Source of the DNA: an uncultured Gammaproteobacteria bacterium
Lineage (GTDB): Bacteria; Patescibacteriota; Patescibacteriia; Magasanikbacterales; UBA922
Length of the DNA: 64,000 nucleotides
Assembly: GCA_964435035.1 (NCBI GenBank)
Contig: CAYSXR010000002.1
Span: 12,252-76,251, forward strand
Reading direction: 5' to 3'
Each line of letters opens with the position of its first letter. Position 1 is the stretch's first letter. The notes beneath the pieces were generated by a model, which worked only from the letters and a program-made list of their open reading frames with translations, did no database searches and was not told where the DNA came from. A program made the translations under genes and the position numbers. Shown in pieces: positions 2,437 to 61,248 of the stretch.

Positions 2437-5001
2437 ATGCAAGAAAAAATTGTTATCAAAGGGGCGAGGGAGCATAATCTTAAGAACATTTCGCTTGAGC
2501 TTCCACGCAACAAAATGATTGTGTTTACCGGACTGTCTGGATCAGGCAAGTCTTCTTTGGCTTTCGACACTATCTTTGCCGAAGGACAGAGACGCTATAT
2601 TGAGAGTCTTTCAGCCTATGCTCGCCAATTTCTTGGTGGGATGCAGAAGCCTGATGTGGATGAGATCGAGGGATTGTCTCCTGCAATTTCTATTGATCAG
2701 AAGGCGCATAGTGCGAATCCCCGTTCAACGGTTGCAACTATTACTGAAATTTATGATTATCTTCGTGTCTTATTTGCGCGTATTGGAGAGCCTTTTTGTC
2801 CGCAGTGTGGTACGAAGATTGAGAAGATGACGACTGATGAAATTGGAGAGAGAATACAAGCTACTGTTTCCAAAATAGAAAAGCTTTCAAAAGGTGCGGA
2901 GCTTATTATTTTTGCACCAGTGGTTCGAGGGAGAAAAGGGGAGTATTATCAGATGCTCTATGATATGTACAATTCTGGATATCTTGAAGTTCGAGTTGAT
3001 GGAAAAATGAAGAGTTTGCGCGATCGGATTGTTCTATCGAAAAATACCAAACACACCATTGAGATTGTGGTAGATAAAATTCCATTGGCTGGTCTTGATA
3101 CACAGCGAATGGCTGAAGCAGTTGAGTCAGCGGTTGATCTGTCCAATGGATTGGTAACTGTATCATTTGACGGGAAACAAGAAGTTATCTATAGCACGCA
3201 GTATTCGTGTCCGAATGATGGATTTGCGTTTCCTGAGATTGAACCTCGGTTGTTTAGTTTCAATAGTCCATACGGTTATTGTACCGCGTGTACTGGTCTT
3301 GGAACTAAAGAATTATTTAGTGAAGAAGTGTGTCTTGTGTGTCAGGGGAAGCGTCTCAATAATACGGCCCTTTCAGTTAAAATCAATAATAAAAATATTT
3401 ACGAGATCACGAGTCTCATGATTAGTGAAGCAAGAGATTTTTTTACTGATCTTCGCAGTACGTTATCTCCACGAGTGATTGAAATATCTACGGCTGCATT
3501 GAATGAAATTGATAATCGTTTGAAATTCATGTTTGATGTGGGACTTCATTATCTTACCCTAAACCGAACTGCAGGCACGCTCTCTGGAGGAGAATCACAA
3601 CGTATTCGATTGGCGTCACAAGTGGGTCAGCGTCTTGTCGGGGCATTATATGTGTTAGACGAGCCTACGATTGGGCTGCATCAGAAAGATAATGATCAGC
3701 TGGTTTCAACACTTCGAAATCTCTGTGATGTCGGGAATACGATTATTGTCGTCGAGCATGATGAAGATACGATTATGGTGTCTGACTGGATTGTGGACAT
3801 TGGTCCAGGTGCGGGAACGCATGGGGGGCATGTAGTGTATTCGGGACCTTTATCCAGTCTGCTTAATAAGAAAAAACCAGAGAGTGTTGCGTATGGTAGC
3901 AAGACGTATGGATCAGTAGAAAAATCTCTTACAGGAAAATATTTGCGTGGAGAGCAGAAAATTTCGGTTCCAGAAAACCGTAGAAAAGTGGACAATACTA
4001 CTCCAAAGATAAAAATTAAAGGAGCGCGGGAACATAATCTCAAAAATATTTCTGTTGAGATTCCGTTGAAACGATTAGTGTGTTTGACCGGAGTGTCTGG
4101 ATCTGGAAAATCCACGCTTATGCATTCGATTCTCTATCGTTCGGTTGCAAATAAATTGAACCATACTCGGTACCATGTCGGAGAGCATGACGCAGTACTC
4201 AATACTGAGTATATTGATAAAATTATCAAGATTGATCAGAAGCCGATTGGGCGGACGCCACGAAGTAATCCTGCGACCTATACCAAGGCATATGATCCGA
4301 TTCGTGAAATTTTTGCCATGACTCCTGAAGCAAAAATCAGAGGATACAAAATTGGACGATTTAGTTTCAACGTACCTGGTGGACGATGTGAGAATTGCGA
4401 AGGAAAAGGATCGCTTGAAATTGAAATGCATTTTCTTCCGACAGTTTCGATTGTGTGTGATGTGTGTAAAGGAGCGAGATTCAATGCGGAAACTCTTGCG
4501 ATTCATTATAAAGAAAAAAATATTGCACAAGTACTGGCAATGACGATTGAAGAGTCACGAGAGTTTTTTCAAGATATTCCTCCAATTGCAGATAAATTGA
4601 ACATGCTTCATGAAGTAGGATTGGATTATCTCACCCTTGGACAATCTGCAAGTACGCTCTCAGGTGGTGAAGCGCAACGAATCAAATTATCTCGAGAACT
4701 GTCAAAGCGTGCGACGAGCAAAACGTTGTATTTGCTTGATGAGCCTACGACTGGACTCCATTTTGATGATGTAAAAAAATTAATTGAAGTATTGCAAAAA
4801 CTTACGTCACACGGCAATACGGTCATGATTATCGAACACAATCTTGAGGTTATCAAATCTGCTGACTGGATTATTGATCTTGGGCCTGAAGGGGGAGATA
4901 AAGGTGGAAAGCTGATTGCGACTGGAACTCCAGAAGAGATTGCGAGAAAATCTACGTCGAGTCATACGGGGTATTATTTGAAGCGAGTATTATCTACTTA
5001 A
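2437..5001 (+). CDS. uvrA: Excinuclease ABC subunit A
   Basis: Two ABC ATPase modules ([12 protein letters not shown] and [10 protein letters not shown]), LSGGE signature motifs twice, and zinc-finger Cys clusters. Confidence 0.95.
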
Positions 5002-5162
5002 TTTTGTGATAAGGTATATAAAAAATACGATTACATTTGGATAGGTTCAGAAAAAAATGAAATTTGTGGTCTATCGAATTGATTGACAACTCTGTTATTT
5101 TATGACAGAGTTTTGTGTATGTGCCGTAATTCAGCGGTACCTGATTCAGGAGGGACAGAGTC

Positions 5163-5579
5163 ATGGAAGAGGGTGTCTATATACTCCATCCACCTGCTCG
5201 CGTTCATAGGGGACCGCGGCCCCATAACCTCATCATCGGGCAGGTGTCCGGGATGATCCACGGCGGAATCGCGGTGTTTCCTGTGGCTGGCGGTGACAAA
5301 GAGCTTGTGCTTGTGTCCCTTCGTTCTCTCGAGAATGCAGATCGCAGCGATTGGAAGAGCAACAGCTGGTTCATGTTCACGGTCGTGTGTCTCGGCTGCA
5401 TCTTGGAGTCGGGAGAGGCCCGTACGTTTGATGGGATCTCTCAGCTCCACCAGCGCGGACTCCACTACATCTGCTGCAGCTTCGATCTCAGTCGTGTGCC
5501 CGATCGCACGGTCACGATCAAGCTTCTCCCGGACGAGCCGCCTGATCCGTCGAAGGGGGCCACGTTCCGTACCTGCTGA
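5163..5579 (+). CDS. Hypothetical protein encoded in high-GC island A
   Basis: Strong RBS AGGAGGG 8 nt before the ATG. On a sampled stretch GC3 (~78%) exceeds GC1, which exceeds GC2, as expected for the coding frame. The ORF track also shows overlapping ORFs in other frames and on the minus strand across the same high-GC stretch. Confidence 0.4.
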   Translation: MEEGVYILHPPARVHRGPRPHNLIIGQVSGMIHGGIAVFPVAGGDKELVLVSLRSLENADRSDWKSNSWFMFTVVCLGCILESGEARTFDGISQLHQRGLHYICCSFDLSRVPDRTVTIKLLPDEPPDPSKGATFRTC

Positions 5580-29092: not shown

Positions 29093-29111
29093 GCTTATTT
29101 TAATAACTATA

Positions 29112-29142
29112 AAAAAGCCTTTATTTTAAGGGCTTTTTTGTT
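29112..29142 (+). terminator. Terminator after rfbD; left copy of a 35-bp direct repeat
   Basis: AAAAAAGCCTTTATTTTAAGGGCTTTTTTGTTTT. The same sequence recurs at 30011-30042 with one mismatch. Confidence 0.7.
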
Positions 29143-30010: not shown

Positions 30011-30042
30011 CAAAAAAGCCTTTATTTTAAAGGCTTTTTTGT
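30011..30042 (+). terminator. Terminator after the island C gene; right copy of the 35-bp direct repeat
   Basis: AAAAAAGCCTTTATTTTAAAGGCTTTTTTGTTTT. Confidence 0.7.
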
Positions 30043-47451: not shown

Positions 47452-47545
47452 ATTTATCCGTGTAGATCCGTGTCATCAGTGTTCTATTCTAAAACATTCG
47501 CTAATGGAACACGGATGACACGGATCTAACGGATTGGAACGGATT
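47452..47545. repeat. ACGGAT-word palindromic intergenic element, copy 2
   Basis: GGAACACGGATGACACGGATCTAACGGATTGGAACGGATTT plus an upstream inverted arm. Abuts the tsaE start codon. Confidence 0.85.
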
Positions 47546-51811: not shown

Positions 51812-51915
51812 TCTTTATAGAATAGAACACGGATGACACGGATCTAACGGATTAGAACGGATTTGTATTTATCCGTGTCTATCCATTTAATCCGTTAAAT
51901 CAGTGTTCCATTTAT
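51812..51915. repeat. ACGGAT-word palindromic intergenic element, copy 3
   Basis: TAGAATAGAACACGGATGACACGGATCTAACGGATTAGAACGGATTT plus inverted arm. Lies between divergent elp3 and the MTase-Nudix gene. Confidence 0.85.
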
Positions 51916-54389: not shown

Positions 54390-54418
54390 TTGACTATGGG
54401 AAAATATCGTGTTATAGT
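54390..54418 (+). promoter_or_regulatory. Sigma70-like promoter TTGACT-17-TATAGT reading toward the LysW-like micro-ORF
   Basis: Near-consensus hexamers with a 17-bp spacer. Confidence 0.45.
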
Positions 54419-54502: not shown

Positions 54503-54664
54503 ATGAGACTTATCTGTCCAGAATGTAAAAATGAAGTCGATATTTCAACATTCCCTAATCTTGCTATTGATCAGGTACTTGAGTGTGATACCTGTGGAAT
54601 TACACTTGTGGTGATTGATGTGGGCGACGAAGTATTTGCCGAAATTGTTGATGAGGGGAAATAA
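54503..54664 (+). CDS. LysW-like zinc-ribbon micro-protein (53 aa)
   Basis: MRLICPECKNEVDISTFPNLAIDQVLECDTCGITLVVIDVGDEVFAEIVDEGK: CPxC...CDTCG pattern and acidic tail. Not in the supplied ORF track because it is under 60 aa. Confidence 0.4.
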   Translation: MRLICPECKNEVDISTFPNLAIDQVLECDTCGITLVVIDVGDEVFAEIVDEGK

Positions 54665-54679
54665 ATTAGTTATTGCATT

Positions 54680-55035
54680 ACGTCATCCCCGCGAAAGCGG
54701 GGATCTTGTGTAATAGGAGGGGTATGGAATATTTTTTTGTGTATATTTTAGCTAGTAAAAAGTGCGGTGTTTTGTATATTGGAGTTACGAATGATCTAAC
54801 GCGTAGGGTTCAGGAATATAAAGCAGGAATTATTGAGGGGTTTACAAAAAAGTATTTTGTACACAAACTAGTATATTTTGAAACGTATACTTTTATTTTA
54901 GAAGCGATTAAACGAGAAAAGCAGCTTAAGAAATGGAATAGAGAGTGGAAGATAGGCTTAATAGAAAAGCAAAATCCAAATTGGTTAGACTTAGCTTCAG
55001 AGGAAAAAAGATCCCCGCTTTCGCGGGGATGACGT
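54680..55035 (+). mobile_element. GIY-YIG nuclease gene bounded by perfect 28-bp terminal inverted repeats (candidate miniature mobile cassette)
   Basis: TIR-L at 54680-54707 is ACGTCATCCCCGCGAAAGCGGGGATCTT. TIR-R at 55008-55035 is its exact reverse complement. Each TIR is itself a hairpin. Confidence 0.5.
54724..55032 (+). CDS. GIY-YIG nuclease superfamily protein
   Basis: YFFVYILASKKCGVLYIGVTNDLTRRVQEH-like GIY-YIG motif. RBS TAGGAGGGG. C-terminal codons overlap the right TIR. Confidence 0.7.
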   Translation: MEYFFVYILASKKCGVLYIGVTNDLTRRVQEYKAGIIEGFTKKYFVHKLVYFETYTFILEAIKREKQLKKWNREWKIGLIEKQNPNWLDLASEEKRSPLSRG

Positions 55036-55078
55036 CTTAAATGTAGTAATTTGCTAAGCGTTAGTCGGAATGACGCTG

Positions 55079-55627
55079 TCACTCAAATAGCATTTTTTTG
55101 AATTCGTCCAGTTTTCCTTGGTAATGAAGTTTGAGAATATCAAGTGTGAGATCTTTTGAACGGAAATCCGGATGCATGAGTATTTCCATGAATTCATCGA
55201 ATGATACTAGACGTGTTCTGATACGTTCACCAGGATCTAGGCGTTGTTCGGTGACTTTTGTACAATTTTTTGCAATAAAACATGAAATAGTCCAGTCCAT
55301 TTTATTGTATAGGTTTCGTTCACGATATAATTTCCAGTGTTCTGCGGTATACCCGGTTTCCTCGAGCATTTCACGTTTGGCTCCCTCAAGTGCACTTTCA
55401 CCTTCGTTAATTACTCCACCGATGAGGCCAATACGTTTTGAAATGGTTGGTTGTTCCTCCTCTGCAACCATGATTTTATCTCCCATAATCGGTAGTACTT
55501 GTACGCTTCCGAGCCGTGTAAGTCCTTCGAATGTTTCAGTCGTTCCATCAAACATTTCTTGTTCCCATTGATATACATCAAAGATTTTTCCTTTGAATAC
55601 TTTTTTTGCATGTTTGGGTATGGACAT
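55079..55627 (-). CDS. Nudix hydrolase
   Basis: Nudix box GGVINEGESALEGAKREMLEETG. Confidence 0.8.
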   Translation of the reverse strand: MSIPKHAKKVFKGKIFDVYQWEQEMFDGTTETFEGLTRLGSVQVLPIMGDKIMVAEEEQPTISKRIGLIGGVINEGESALEGAKREMLEETGYTAEHWKLYRERNLYNKMDWTISCFIAKNCTKVTEQRLDPGERIRTRLVSFDEFMEILMHPDFRSKDLTLDILKLHYQGKLDEFKKMLFE

Positions 55628-57709: not shown

Positions 57710-57775
57710 AGAATAGAACACGGATGACACGGATTTAACGGATTGGGACGGATTATATTTATTATTGATCTTGTT
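57710..57775. repeat. ACGGAT-word element, copy 4 (single arm)
   Basis: TAGAATAGAACACGGATGACACGGATTTAACGGATTGGGACGGATT, abutting the start codon at 57709. Confidence 0.8.
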
Positions 57776-61139: not shown

Positions 61140-61248
61140 GCATTAATCCGTGTAAACCCGTGTTATCCGTTAAATCCGCGTTCTATTAAGTGAATGTTAT
61201 AGAATAGCACACGGATGACACGGATTTAACGGATTGGGACGGATTTTT
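61140..61248. repeat. ACGGAT-word palindromic intergenic element, copy 5
   Basis: Both arms present. Abuts the NlpC/P60-like start (61135) and the ATP-grasp stop (61247). Confidence 0.85.

Follow-up and report, generated by a model that had tools for sequence, protein, structure and literature searches.

An Ssn-family nuclease gene between inverted copies of its putative recognition hairpin in Candidatus Magasanikbacteria

The DNA considered here, a stretch of 64,000 nucleotides (nt) of contig CAYSXR010000002.1 (assembly GCA_964435035.1) which we call the window, belongs to a member of Candidatus Magasanikbacteria (Patescibacteria), as judged from named matches to its Mur ligase near the region of interest, and contains, at 54680-55035, the gene of a GIY-YIG nuclease of 102 amino acids (aa) enclosed by two inverted arms of 28 nt. 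We argue that this region is an SRM-ssn-SRM cassette, that is, a gene of the Ssn family of single-stranded DNA (ssDNA) endonucleases placed between inverted copies of the hairpin that its own product recognises, the Ssn-related motif (SRM); we put the probability of this reading at about 0.85. An earlier note on this DNA, made from the letters alone, had taken the cassette for a kind not yet described. The architecture was, however, published in 2025 (Chenal et al. 2025, Nat Commun 16:2388, PMC11893778), and the hairpin had been catalogued before that as one of the "CGTC-tagged REPs" (Di Nocera et al. 2013, PMC3733652). The cassette opens no new category: it is a fresh example of a described architecture in a phylum outside the discussion of the 2025 paper, in which Candidatus Magasanikbacteria (Patescibacteria) are not mentioned (PMC11893778).

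The founding case of the family is well characterised. SsnA of Neisseria meningitidis, a single-domain GIY-YIG protein of 94 aa assigned to CDD cd10448 (GIY-YIG_unchar_3), binds the hairpin repeat NTS, CGTCATTCCCGCGMAVGCGGGAATCYRG, solely as ssDNA and nicks it a few nt upstream, with no activity on double-stranded DNA (dsDNA), on RNA, which is not even bound, or on the reverse strand; the cut, mapped with substrates of 37 nt and 28 nt, lies 3 nt upstream of the NTS as we read the data (PMC11893778). Cleavage is abolished by the replacements Y6A, Y17A and E64A; cutting depends most on the three nt that precede the palindrome, and binding depends most on the C that follows it (PMC11893778). Biochemistry has been published for four Ssn homologs, and among homologs defined by blastp E<1e-10 against N. 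meningitidis NMV_0044, at least one SRM was found nearby in 71% and an SRM on both sides in 42% (PMC11893778).

The cassette and its nuclease

The left arm (54680-54707, + strand) is the exact reverse complement of 55008-55035, with 0 mismatches over the whole 28-mer ACGTCATCCCCGCGAAAGCGGGGATCTT, as had been stated in the earlier note. Even when up to 3 mismatches are allowed, this 28-mer has only these two copies in the window, a match of any kind was seen in 0 of 100 shuffled sequences, the pair ranks first among the inverted repeats of the entire window, and the 16-nt palindromic core CCCCGCGAAAGCGGGG is confined to the two arms. An alternative delineation, in which the arm repeat was stretched to 45 nt at 82% identity, was discarded: it is carried by the 28 perfect bases, and the remaining 17 nt are unconvincing. 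Each arm is also a hairpin in itself, again as previously claimed: folded as ssDNA, it forms a stem of 8 bp with a loop of 4 nt (dG -9.6 to -10.2 kcal/mol, z -3.2 to -4.0). The left SRM (dG -10.2 kcal/mol as a DNA hairpin) consists of the head CGTC (54681-54684), the two stem halves (54685-54692 and 54697-54704), the loop GAAA (54693-54696) and a conserved C (54705), and its sequence is 100% conserved in a related species (L003) and in the metagenome-assembled genome (MAG) GCA_965084955.1 (L169). The right SRM (55008-55035, - strand) has its hairpin at 55011-55030 and overlaps the end of the nuclease gene; it supplies the stop codon, as had been noted, together with seven full codons (RSPLSRG) and the last base of K95, and not the eight codons originally counted.

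Both arms carry the published NTS/SRM motif. Of the 28 positions of the NTS consensus, 25 agree in the left arm and 24 in the right arm; the left arm deviates at three positions, two of which together form a compensatory change of one stem pair, from T:A to C:G, the layout being CGTCAT-C-CCCGCGAAAGCGGG-G-ATC. In both arms the palindrome is preceded by GTC and followed by C, nucleotides reported to be critical for cleavage and binding, respectively. The same hairpin can be compared with family CGTC-1 of the CGTC-tagged REPs, which includes dRS3 of Neisseria and RPE-6 of Rickettsia and is defined by a stem of 8 bp whose first bases are AT, a loop of 4 nt and the tail CCA (PMC3733652): the arm has the CGTC head, the stem ATCCCCGC/GCGGGGAT with A and T first, the GAAA loop and a short unpaired tail, CTT in place of the usual CCA. 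What the window lacks is the moderate or high dispersed intergenic copy number of that family, since only two copies lie within the 64 kb, both at the cassette. CGTC-tagged REPs are dispersed, high-copy and mostly head-to-head dimers, judged to have no dedicated enzyme (PMC3733652), whereas here two copies stand tail-to-tail around a cognate nuclease gene. Likewise, the NTS of Neisseria is dispersed in hundreds of copies, while the present cassette has only the two flanking motifs in 64 kb, and the Neisseria system has a T:A stem pair and a CCA/YRG tail where the cassette has a C:G pair and a TT tail. The window represents the minimal state of the system, namely a single gene and its two target hairpins, in 64 kb of a small Patescibacteria genome where dispersed copies of the repeat are lacking.

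The enclosed gene, ssn (54724-55032, + strand), is preceded by the Shine-Dalgarno sequence AGGAGG (54715-54720, + strand), 3 nt before the ATG, in agreement with the strong ribosome-binding site noticed earlier, and encodes a one-domain protein in which residues 4-76 of 102 match the Pfam GIY-YIG family (PF01541, E=3.5e-13). Judged by its sequence, this protein is a member of the Ssn nuclease family. It is 54% identical over 85 aa to the 94-aa SsnA ortholog of Neisseria gonorrhoeae (E=4e-33 in a pairwise comparison, 7e-23 in a database search), which serves here as a proxy for N. meningitidis SsnA and was recognised by its length, its Y6/Y17/E64 residues and its NTS flanks rather than by accession (open reading frame (ORF) L178:1489-1773); it was taken from an N. 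gonorrhoeae chromosome mislabelled as a plasmid in a plasmid collection. Indeed, the PLSDB "plasmids" NZ_CP119140.1, NZ_CP119142.1 and NZ_AP026896.1, with lengths of 2.17 Mb for N. gonorrhoeae and 4.9 Mb for Aeromonas caviae, are evidently chromosomes. The residues Y7, Y18 and E65 of the cassette protein align with Y6, Y17 and E64 of the gonococcal protein and, with R28, make up the catalytic set indicated by the alignment; at the positions of Y7, Y18 and E65, 119-121 of 121 homologs have the identical residue. Thus, the cassette and the published Ssn/SRM systems share a single-domain GIY-YIG protein of ~94-102 aa, the same catalytic residues, the motif on both flanks of the gene, and the hairpin, with its CGTCAT, its stem of 8 bp opening with AT, its loop of 4 nt and its ATC.

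The AlphaFold2 model of the protein is one compact domain (mean pLDDT 84.8), with residues 96-102 below 50. These residues, RSPLSRG, are the ones encoded by the right SRM; since they are disordered in the model and most homologs end near residue 95, the tail is an incidental read-through into the repeat. The best Foldseek matches of the model are the GIY-YIG folds of UPF0213, Slx1 and UvrC, and a search of the PDB by sequence and by fold returned no solved Ssn structure, the nearest entries being, again, UPF0213, Slx1 and UvrC. Among other collections, the NCBIfam search gave no specific family model for the protein, PADLOC matched no defence-system model, 50,697 phage records yielded no homolog, and Rfam, searched permissively on the region and at gathering threshold on the whole window, returned sub-threshold chance hairpin matches and no known RNA family.

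Hairpin and gene across the family

The arrangement of SRMs around the gene is family-wide. A search of a protein collection recovered more than 5,000 homolog clusters, 60-75% identical to the query and spread over unrelated phyla, and many of these proteins begin with peptides like SFPRKRES-, SFPRRRES- or CHSRENGNL-, or end with peptides like GFPLSRE-, DSRLRGND- or RSPLSRG-. These odd termini are translations of one GC-rich hairpin, the SRM, in different frames. For annotation, this means that database peptides such as SFPRKRES, GFPLSRE, DSRLRGND and RSPLSRG are translated flanking hairpins, and that the cassette gene and its thousands of relatives would be better named Ssn-family ssDNA endonucleases than "GIY-YIG nuclease family protein".

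At the DNA level, 80 loci were fetched from species-representative genomes, and for each gene the 200 nt on its upstream side were compared with the 200 nt on its downstream side, the score being that of the best inverted repeat without gaps. Of 83 homolog loci, drawn from many phyla, 58% reached a score of at least 18, compared with 0.7% of the displaced windows that served as controls; 44 of the 48 high-scoring arms have a hairpin inside them, a feature for which the search did not select. The resulting SRM consensus, (Y)GTCAT-TCCCGCG-AAAG-CGGGA-ATCCA(G), shows compensatory stem variants, the third pair being T:A, C:G or A:T, and the sixth and eighth pairs C:G or T:A; because the covariation counts come from hairpins chosen for pairing, they illustrate the pair types and are biased as a test, the unbiased evidence being the 44 of 48 arms. 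In a profile of 99 SRMs, which were selected so that GTC does not vary, 99% have the C behind the stem, and the T:A pair is replaced by C:G, as in the window, in 21 of 99.

Orientation was addressed with a scan for SRMs of canonical geometry over 84 genes, which replaced looser scans, for GTC with any stem of 7 bp and a loop of at most 40 nt, whose matches were no more numerous than in reversed-sequence controls. Upstream of the genes, 59 canonical SRMs were found on the + strand and 13 on the - strand, and downstream 60 on the - strand and 16 on the + strand; the flanks hold 45 further copies, whereas the reversed-sequence control gave 2 over all positions. Inward-facing SRMs on both sides accompany 44 of the 84 genes (52%). 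The earlier note had named orthologous genes devoid of the repeat as an outcome that would speak against its idea; orthologs and distant homologs alike carry SRMs.

These data also bear on an explanation that denies the arms any relation to the GIY-YIG gene and takes them for a generic word of the genome (a repeat or a terminator), for a chance occurrence or for an assembly feature. GC-rich hairpins are, indeed, common terminators, and the window contains another family of hairpin repeats. Nevertheless, the two copies in 64 kb both lie at the gene, with no match among 100 shuffles, the same arms recur in independent assemblies and in related species, and the motif flanks homologs in dozens of phyla, so this reading is refuted: the repeat is tied specifically to the GIY-YIG gene and is no generic terminator word.

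An explanation at the level of RNA was also considered. The arms could mainly be transcription elements, namely, a hairpin in the 5' untranslated region and a 3' terminator or stabiliser, which would insulate and regulate ssn and end the transcript of the convergent Nudix gene on its right, and would not be targets of the nuclease at all. In its favour, the left arm stands between the stop codon of the LysW-like gene on the left and the ribosome-binding site of ssn; the right arm is followed on the - strand by CTTTTTTCC and scores terminator-like in a scan of that strand; and in a related genome without the cassette (L176) a hairpin of the bidirectional terminator type occupies the corresponding position. 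However, what is conserved across phyla goes beyond structure to sequence (GTCAT at the 5' side, ATC at the 3' side and the stem itself), the unpaired head and tail are the very nucleotides needed for cleavage and binding by Ssn (PMC11893778), the left arm has no T-run, and RNA is not bound by N. meningitidis SsnA (PMC11893778). We consider it improbable that the arms serve RNA-level functions in place of target functions. The two roles are not mutually exclusive: given that CTTTTTTCC comes after its hairpin on the - strand, the right arm probably serves also as the terminator of the convergent Nudix gene.

Several observations weigh against the reading of the region as an SRM-ssn-SRM cassette. 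First, the column of H32 (motif E-H-K) holds His in 118 of 121 homologs and Tyr in the cassette protein, and the activity of this protein is assigned by analogy, from the biochemistry of its relatives. Second, ATC is followed by a TT(G/T) tail where CCA/YRG is usual, T being present at that position in 8% of the SRM profile, and the efficiency of binding or cutting could differ accordingly. Third, the cassette's two SRMs are the only ones in 64 kb, and the genome would have at least four counting a second cassette (see below); with so few sites in the window, the role described in Neisseria, modulation of transformation around NTS-flanked genes, is not simply transferable. Finally, the CGTC heads of the present cassette, like those around most of the 84 sampled genes, point outward, whereas the NTS copies around gonococcal ssnA have their heads toward the gene, so head orientation is not a fixed feature of the family.

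Some details may be added on these points. Codon 32 of ssn occupies 54817-54819, and Tyr32 is shared by the cassette protein, P0006 and one other homolog, the closest relatives P0002 and P0003 having His. UvrC-type GIY-YIG domains carry Tyr at the position of H32. The NTS copies nearest to the N. gonorrhoeae ortholog are at L178 1355-1382, 1775-1804, 1850-1878 and 1930-1958. Outside chromosomes, the ssn homolog of the Rhizobium sp. CIAT894 plasmid pRheCIAT894e is accompanied by another SRM variant, CCGTCATCCCAGGGCTTGACCCTGGGATCC, at L179 1942-1975, 2310-2340 and 2479-2512. This variant recurs nearby, a 1.6-kb query from the locus matched six places in the plasmid record, and an IS4 transposase gene lies immediately upstream. 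Rhizobium plasmids were compared with this locus in search of an empty site exact to the nucleotide, but the relatives have in common with it the neighbouring peptidase gene alone (~84%).

Taking the region as an SRM-ssn-SRM cassette, its working can be envisaged by homology with the characterised members. The nuclease would bind the SRM hairpin in ssDNA only and nick a few nt 5' of it, and whichever strand became single-stranded during replication, DNA uptake or repair would present one arm in the cleavable orientation. The predicted nick on the + strand is at 54677/54678, 3 nt 5' of the C in CGTCAT, a position that follows the cleavage mapping of N. meningitidis SsnA (PMC11893778) and may shift by 1-2 nt; the counterpart on the - strand, 3 nt 5' of the head of the right SRM, is predicted at 55037/55038. 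Both sites would, thus, lie about 3 nt outside the cassette. As the arms are on opposite strands, any one strand would be cut once and not excised. Candidate cellular roles are the restriction of incoming ssDNA, as in Neisseria, self-propagation, or both.

Empty sites, a second copy and the question of mobility

The cassette is inserted between two convergent genes. On its left, 15 nt separate the left arm from the stop codon of a gene for a LysW-like zinc-ribbon protein of 53 aa (54503-54664, + strand; Pfam PF21344, E=6.4e-06, just under the gathering score); a promoter-like site found in a promoter scan at 54390-54418 precedes this gene, so ssn may be co-transcribed with it. On the right lies the gene of a Nudix hydrolase (55079-55627, - strand; Pfam PF00293). 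The cassette is present unchanged in the independent assemblies L001 and L002, and the same LysW/Nudix junction is filled in a related species (L003-L005) and in the MAG GCA_965084955.1, so the cassette is no assembly artefact.

A comparison of the window with L003 reveals a steep gradient of conservation. Both 28-nt arms and the 16 nt from the left arm to the ATG are 100% identical, the ssn ORF is 86% identical (with 19 synonymous and 15 non-synonymous codon differences), the LysW-like and Nudix genes are 70-74% identical, and the spacers outside the arms only ~50%. Arms at 100% identity next to an ORF at 86% and neighbours at 70-74% indicate that the arms are under very strong constraint or are homogenised.

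In equally close relatives the junction holds neither cassette nor SRM: the spacer between the LysW-like and Nudix genes is 32 nt in L172 and 29 nt in L176 and L177, where it contains an ordinary bidirectional terminator, and the Mur ligase of these genomes is 77-78% identical to that of the window. More distant relatives (L086-L126) have spacers of 0-116 nt, also without the cassette. The empty sites that the earlier note had suggested looking for in relatives are thus at hand, although the filled and empty genomes are too diverged for the junction to be defined at nucleotide resolution. In a rough neighbour-joining tree of Mur and Nudix sequences, built without support values, the ssn-positive genomes are not monophyletic; the tree leaves gain versus loss open and was not used to argue for multiple gains. 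The same spacer is a recurrent landing place, as unrelated inserts occupy it in L174 (5032-5337) and L175 (4935-5305), one being a 101-aa ORF without a Pfam match and the other a GC-rich segment of 371 nt with its own terminator hairpin.

A second cassette (B, the one at the LysW/Nudix junction being A) lies downstream of an RF-1-domain gene in L166-L168, which come from the window's own sequencing samples, in L171, from a different sample, and in GCA_965084955.1 (L170). The homology between cassettes A and B starts with ACGTCAT and ends with ATGACGT, and the flanks beyond are unrelated. The ssn copies of the two loci (L166 3001-3225, L169 2940-3261, L170 2142-2435 and L171 840-1148) decay reciprocally within the lineage: copy B is a pseudogene in L166, where TGG has become TAG at codon 75, while in L169 copy A has lost its start (ATG to AGG) and, by a 1-nt deletion, its frame, with both arms intact, and the genome concerned, GCA_965084955.1, has an intact copy B where copy A is dead. 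Genomes with two cassettes occur elsewhere as well. A Bdellovibrionales MAG (L071) has two of them 2.4 kb apart (1208-1593 and 3673-4058), with ORFs ~85% identical and identical SRMs, which suggests homogenisation of the hairpins or selection on them; a Flavobacteriaceae MAG (L007) has two within 2-2.5 kb (3135-3700 and 4935-5335).

Taken together, the empty sites, the second cassette bounded at the SRM ends and the conserved arms indicate that the cassette behaves as an inserted, duplicable unit. Chenal et al. likened NTS-ssnA-NTS to an insertion sequence and to RAYT/REP, and raised mobility as an idea that was left untested there (PMC11893778); the empty sites, the second bounded copy and the reciprocal decay provide comparative evidence for it. 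On this evidence, the stretch from one head to the other would have been inserted and duplicated as a block in the past and, since its insertion at the LysW/Nudix site, would have been inherited vertically. Past mobility is, therefore, likely, and present mobility is unproven.

A stronger proposal regards the cassette as a mobile element that is autonomous and is active now or was so until recently, either a minimal transposon or a homing cassette, in which the nuclease cuts its own terminal repeats and so moves or copies the unit. Perfect 28-bp terminal inverted repeats bound the unit, the empty sites in sister genomes are clean, two cassettes reside at unrelated loci of one lineage with homology that stops at the arm heads, L071 and L007 harbour two cassettes each, and the 60-70% identity of homologs across unrelated phyla suggests horizontal transfer. 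Yet the borders tell against it. No target-site duplication was found at the borders of 44 cassettes: 33 of the 44 have no border direct repeat of 3 nt or more, and none has one longer than 4 nt. The chemistry, too, is difficult. GIY-YIG enzymes hydrolyse DNA and are not known to transfer or rejoin strands; the only ORF of the cassette encodes such a hydrolase, and no DDE, HUH, serine or tyrosine recombinase, which could transfer strands, is encoded there. Moreover, the characterised Ssn enzymes cut ssDNA only, and only one strand of the motif, so opposite arms would lead to a single cut, and the presence of the recognition sites in the filled allele leaves classical homing into empty alleles unexplained. 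The ORF of the cassette at the LysW/Nudix locus has diverged by 14% without the cassette leaving its place, copies decay as described above for L166 and L169, and the 50,697 phage records contain no homolog. The comparative data show no recent movement of the cassette. We consider autonomous, recent activity possible but rather unlikely. Of the minimal mobile cassette of the earlier note, the inserted and duplicated unit remains; transposition chemistry, target duplication and recent movement are not seen.

The cassette was also compared with known systems. RAYT/REPIN systems (REPtrons) also consist of a small nuclease gene between inverted GC-rich hairpins that the enzyme recognises as ssDNA, are also inherited mostly vertically, and also show covariation of protein and hairpin. 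However, RAYT is an HUH/Y1 tyrosine transposase that forms a covalent intermediate and can rejoin, and its REPs have GTAG heads, whereas Ssn is a GIY-YIG hydrolase of CGTC-headed hairpins; identity of the cassette with RAYT/REPIN was accordingly rejected, and the resemblance is one of analogous architecture only. Elements of the IS200/IS605 family likewise have subterminal ssDNA hairpins that are recognised and cut a few nt away, but their ends are not inverted repeats, both hairpins are on the same strand and the enzyme is of the HUH/Y1 type, in contrast to the perfect inverted arms on opposite strands and the GIY-YIG enzyme found here. The GIY-YIG homing endonucleases (I-TevI, I-BmoI and the Seg proteins) share with the cassette protein the catalytic domain and an association with mobile DNA; they differ in having a linker and a C-terminal DNA-binding domain, in cutting the dsDNA of intron-less or gene-less alleles, and in residing in group I introns or free-standing in phages. 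An I-TevI-type homing endonuclease was rejected as a candidate, the protein being a bare 102-aa domain without intron context or phage homolog. The homing cassette envisaged in the earlier note fails on similar grounds: the characterised Ssn enzymes do not cut dsDNA, an extension like the DNA-binding one of I-TevI is missing, and the sites are in the occupied allele. With each strand cut once, sites present in the filled allele and a GIY-YIG enzyme of a kind not known to rejoin DNA, neither the "peel and paste" of IS200/IS605 nor homing fits.

What the cassette does offer is a simple natural substrate pair for the question of how a nuclease without rejoining activity could spread. One could speculate that SRM-ssn-SRM units form a distinct class of bacterial mobile elements, in which a bare GIY-YIG enzyme nicks ssDNA outside its own hairpins and the replication and repair machinery of the host does the copying, an idea that we regard as unlikely and put forward tentatively. 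Should it be correct, the Magasanikbacteria lineage would record such events in the form of a clean insertion, a further cassette that ends at the same nucleotides and the reciprocal decay of redundant copies, and the orphan CGTC-tagged REPs would gain a mobilising enzyme.

The other GIY-YIG gene and further repeats of the window

The window contains a second GIY-YIG gene (2065-2310, - strand), divergent from uvrA (2437-5001), which the earlier note had considered a repeat-less paralog of the cassette gene. No SRM is found in its flanks, and its 81-aa product belongs to another branch, UPF0213 (YazA/YhbQ-like), with E=2e-14 to PDB 1zg2; local alignments give 33% identity with the cassette protein (over 64 aa) and 33% with the gonococcal SsnA ortholog (over 75 aa). 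UPF0213 proteins (PDB 1zg2, 1ywl) resemble the cassette protein in consisting of the GIY-YIG domain alone, in size and in being its best match in the PDB by sequence and structure. That match is, however, weak (E=0.007), and the true UPF0213 member of the window is the product of 2065-2310.

An ACGGAT element had also been noticed beside this gene, and a copy of a second repeat family does abut its 3' end. This family, unrelated to the SRM, is a hairpin of ~60 nt (TCCGTGTCATCCGTGTTCCATT ... AATAGAACACTGATGACACGGA) within runs of AATCCGT/ACGGAT words; it is found at 1994-2052 and 47463-47528, and partial copies lie near 51821-51871, 57712-57750 and 61203-61240. A 17-mer of the family has 7 matches in the window versus 0.16 expected. 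Its other copies are not beside GIY-YIG genes. Words of the ACGCGGA type fill the LysW/Nudix spacer of the distant relatives L086, L088, L090 and L126.

Finally, two near-identical palindromic, terminator-like words (AAAAAAGCCTTTATTTTAAGGGCTTTTTTG), at 29111-29140 and 30011-30040, surround a segment of 870 nt; when the window is divided into bins of 2 kb, the bin in which this segment lies (GC 0.457) is among the two richest in GC.

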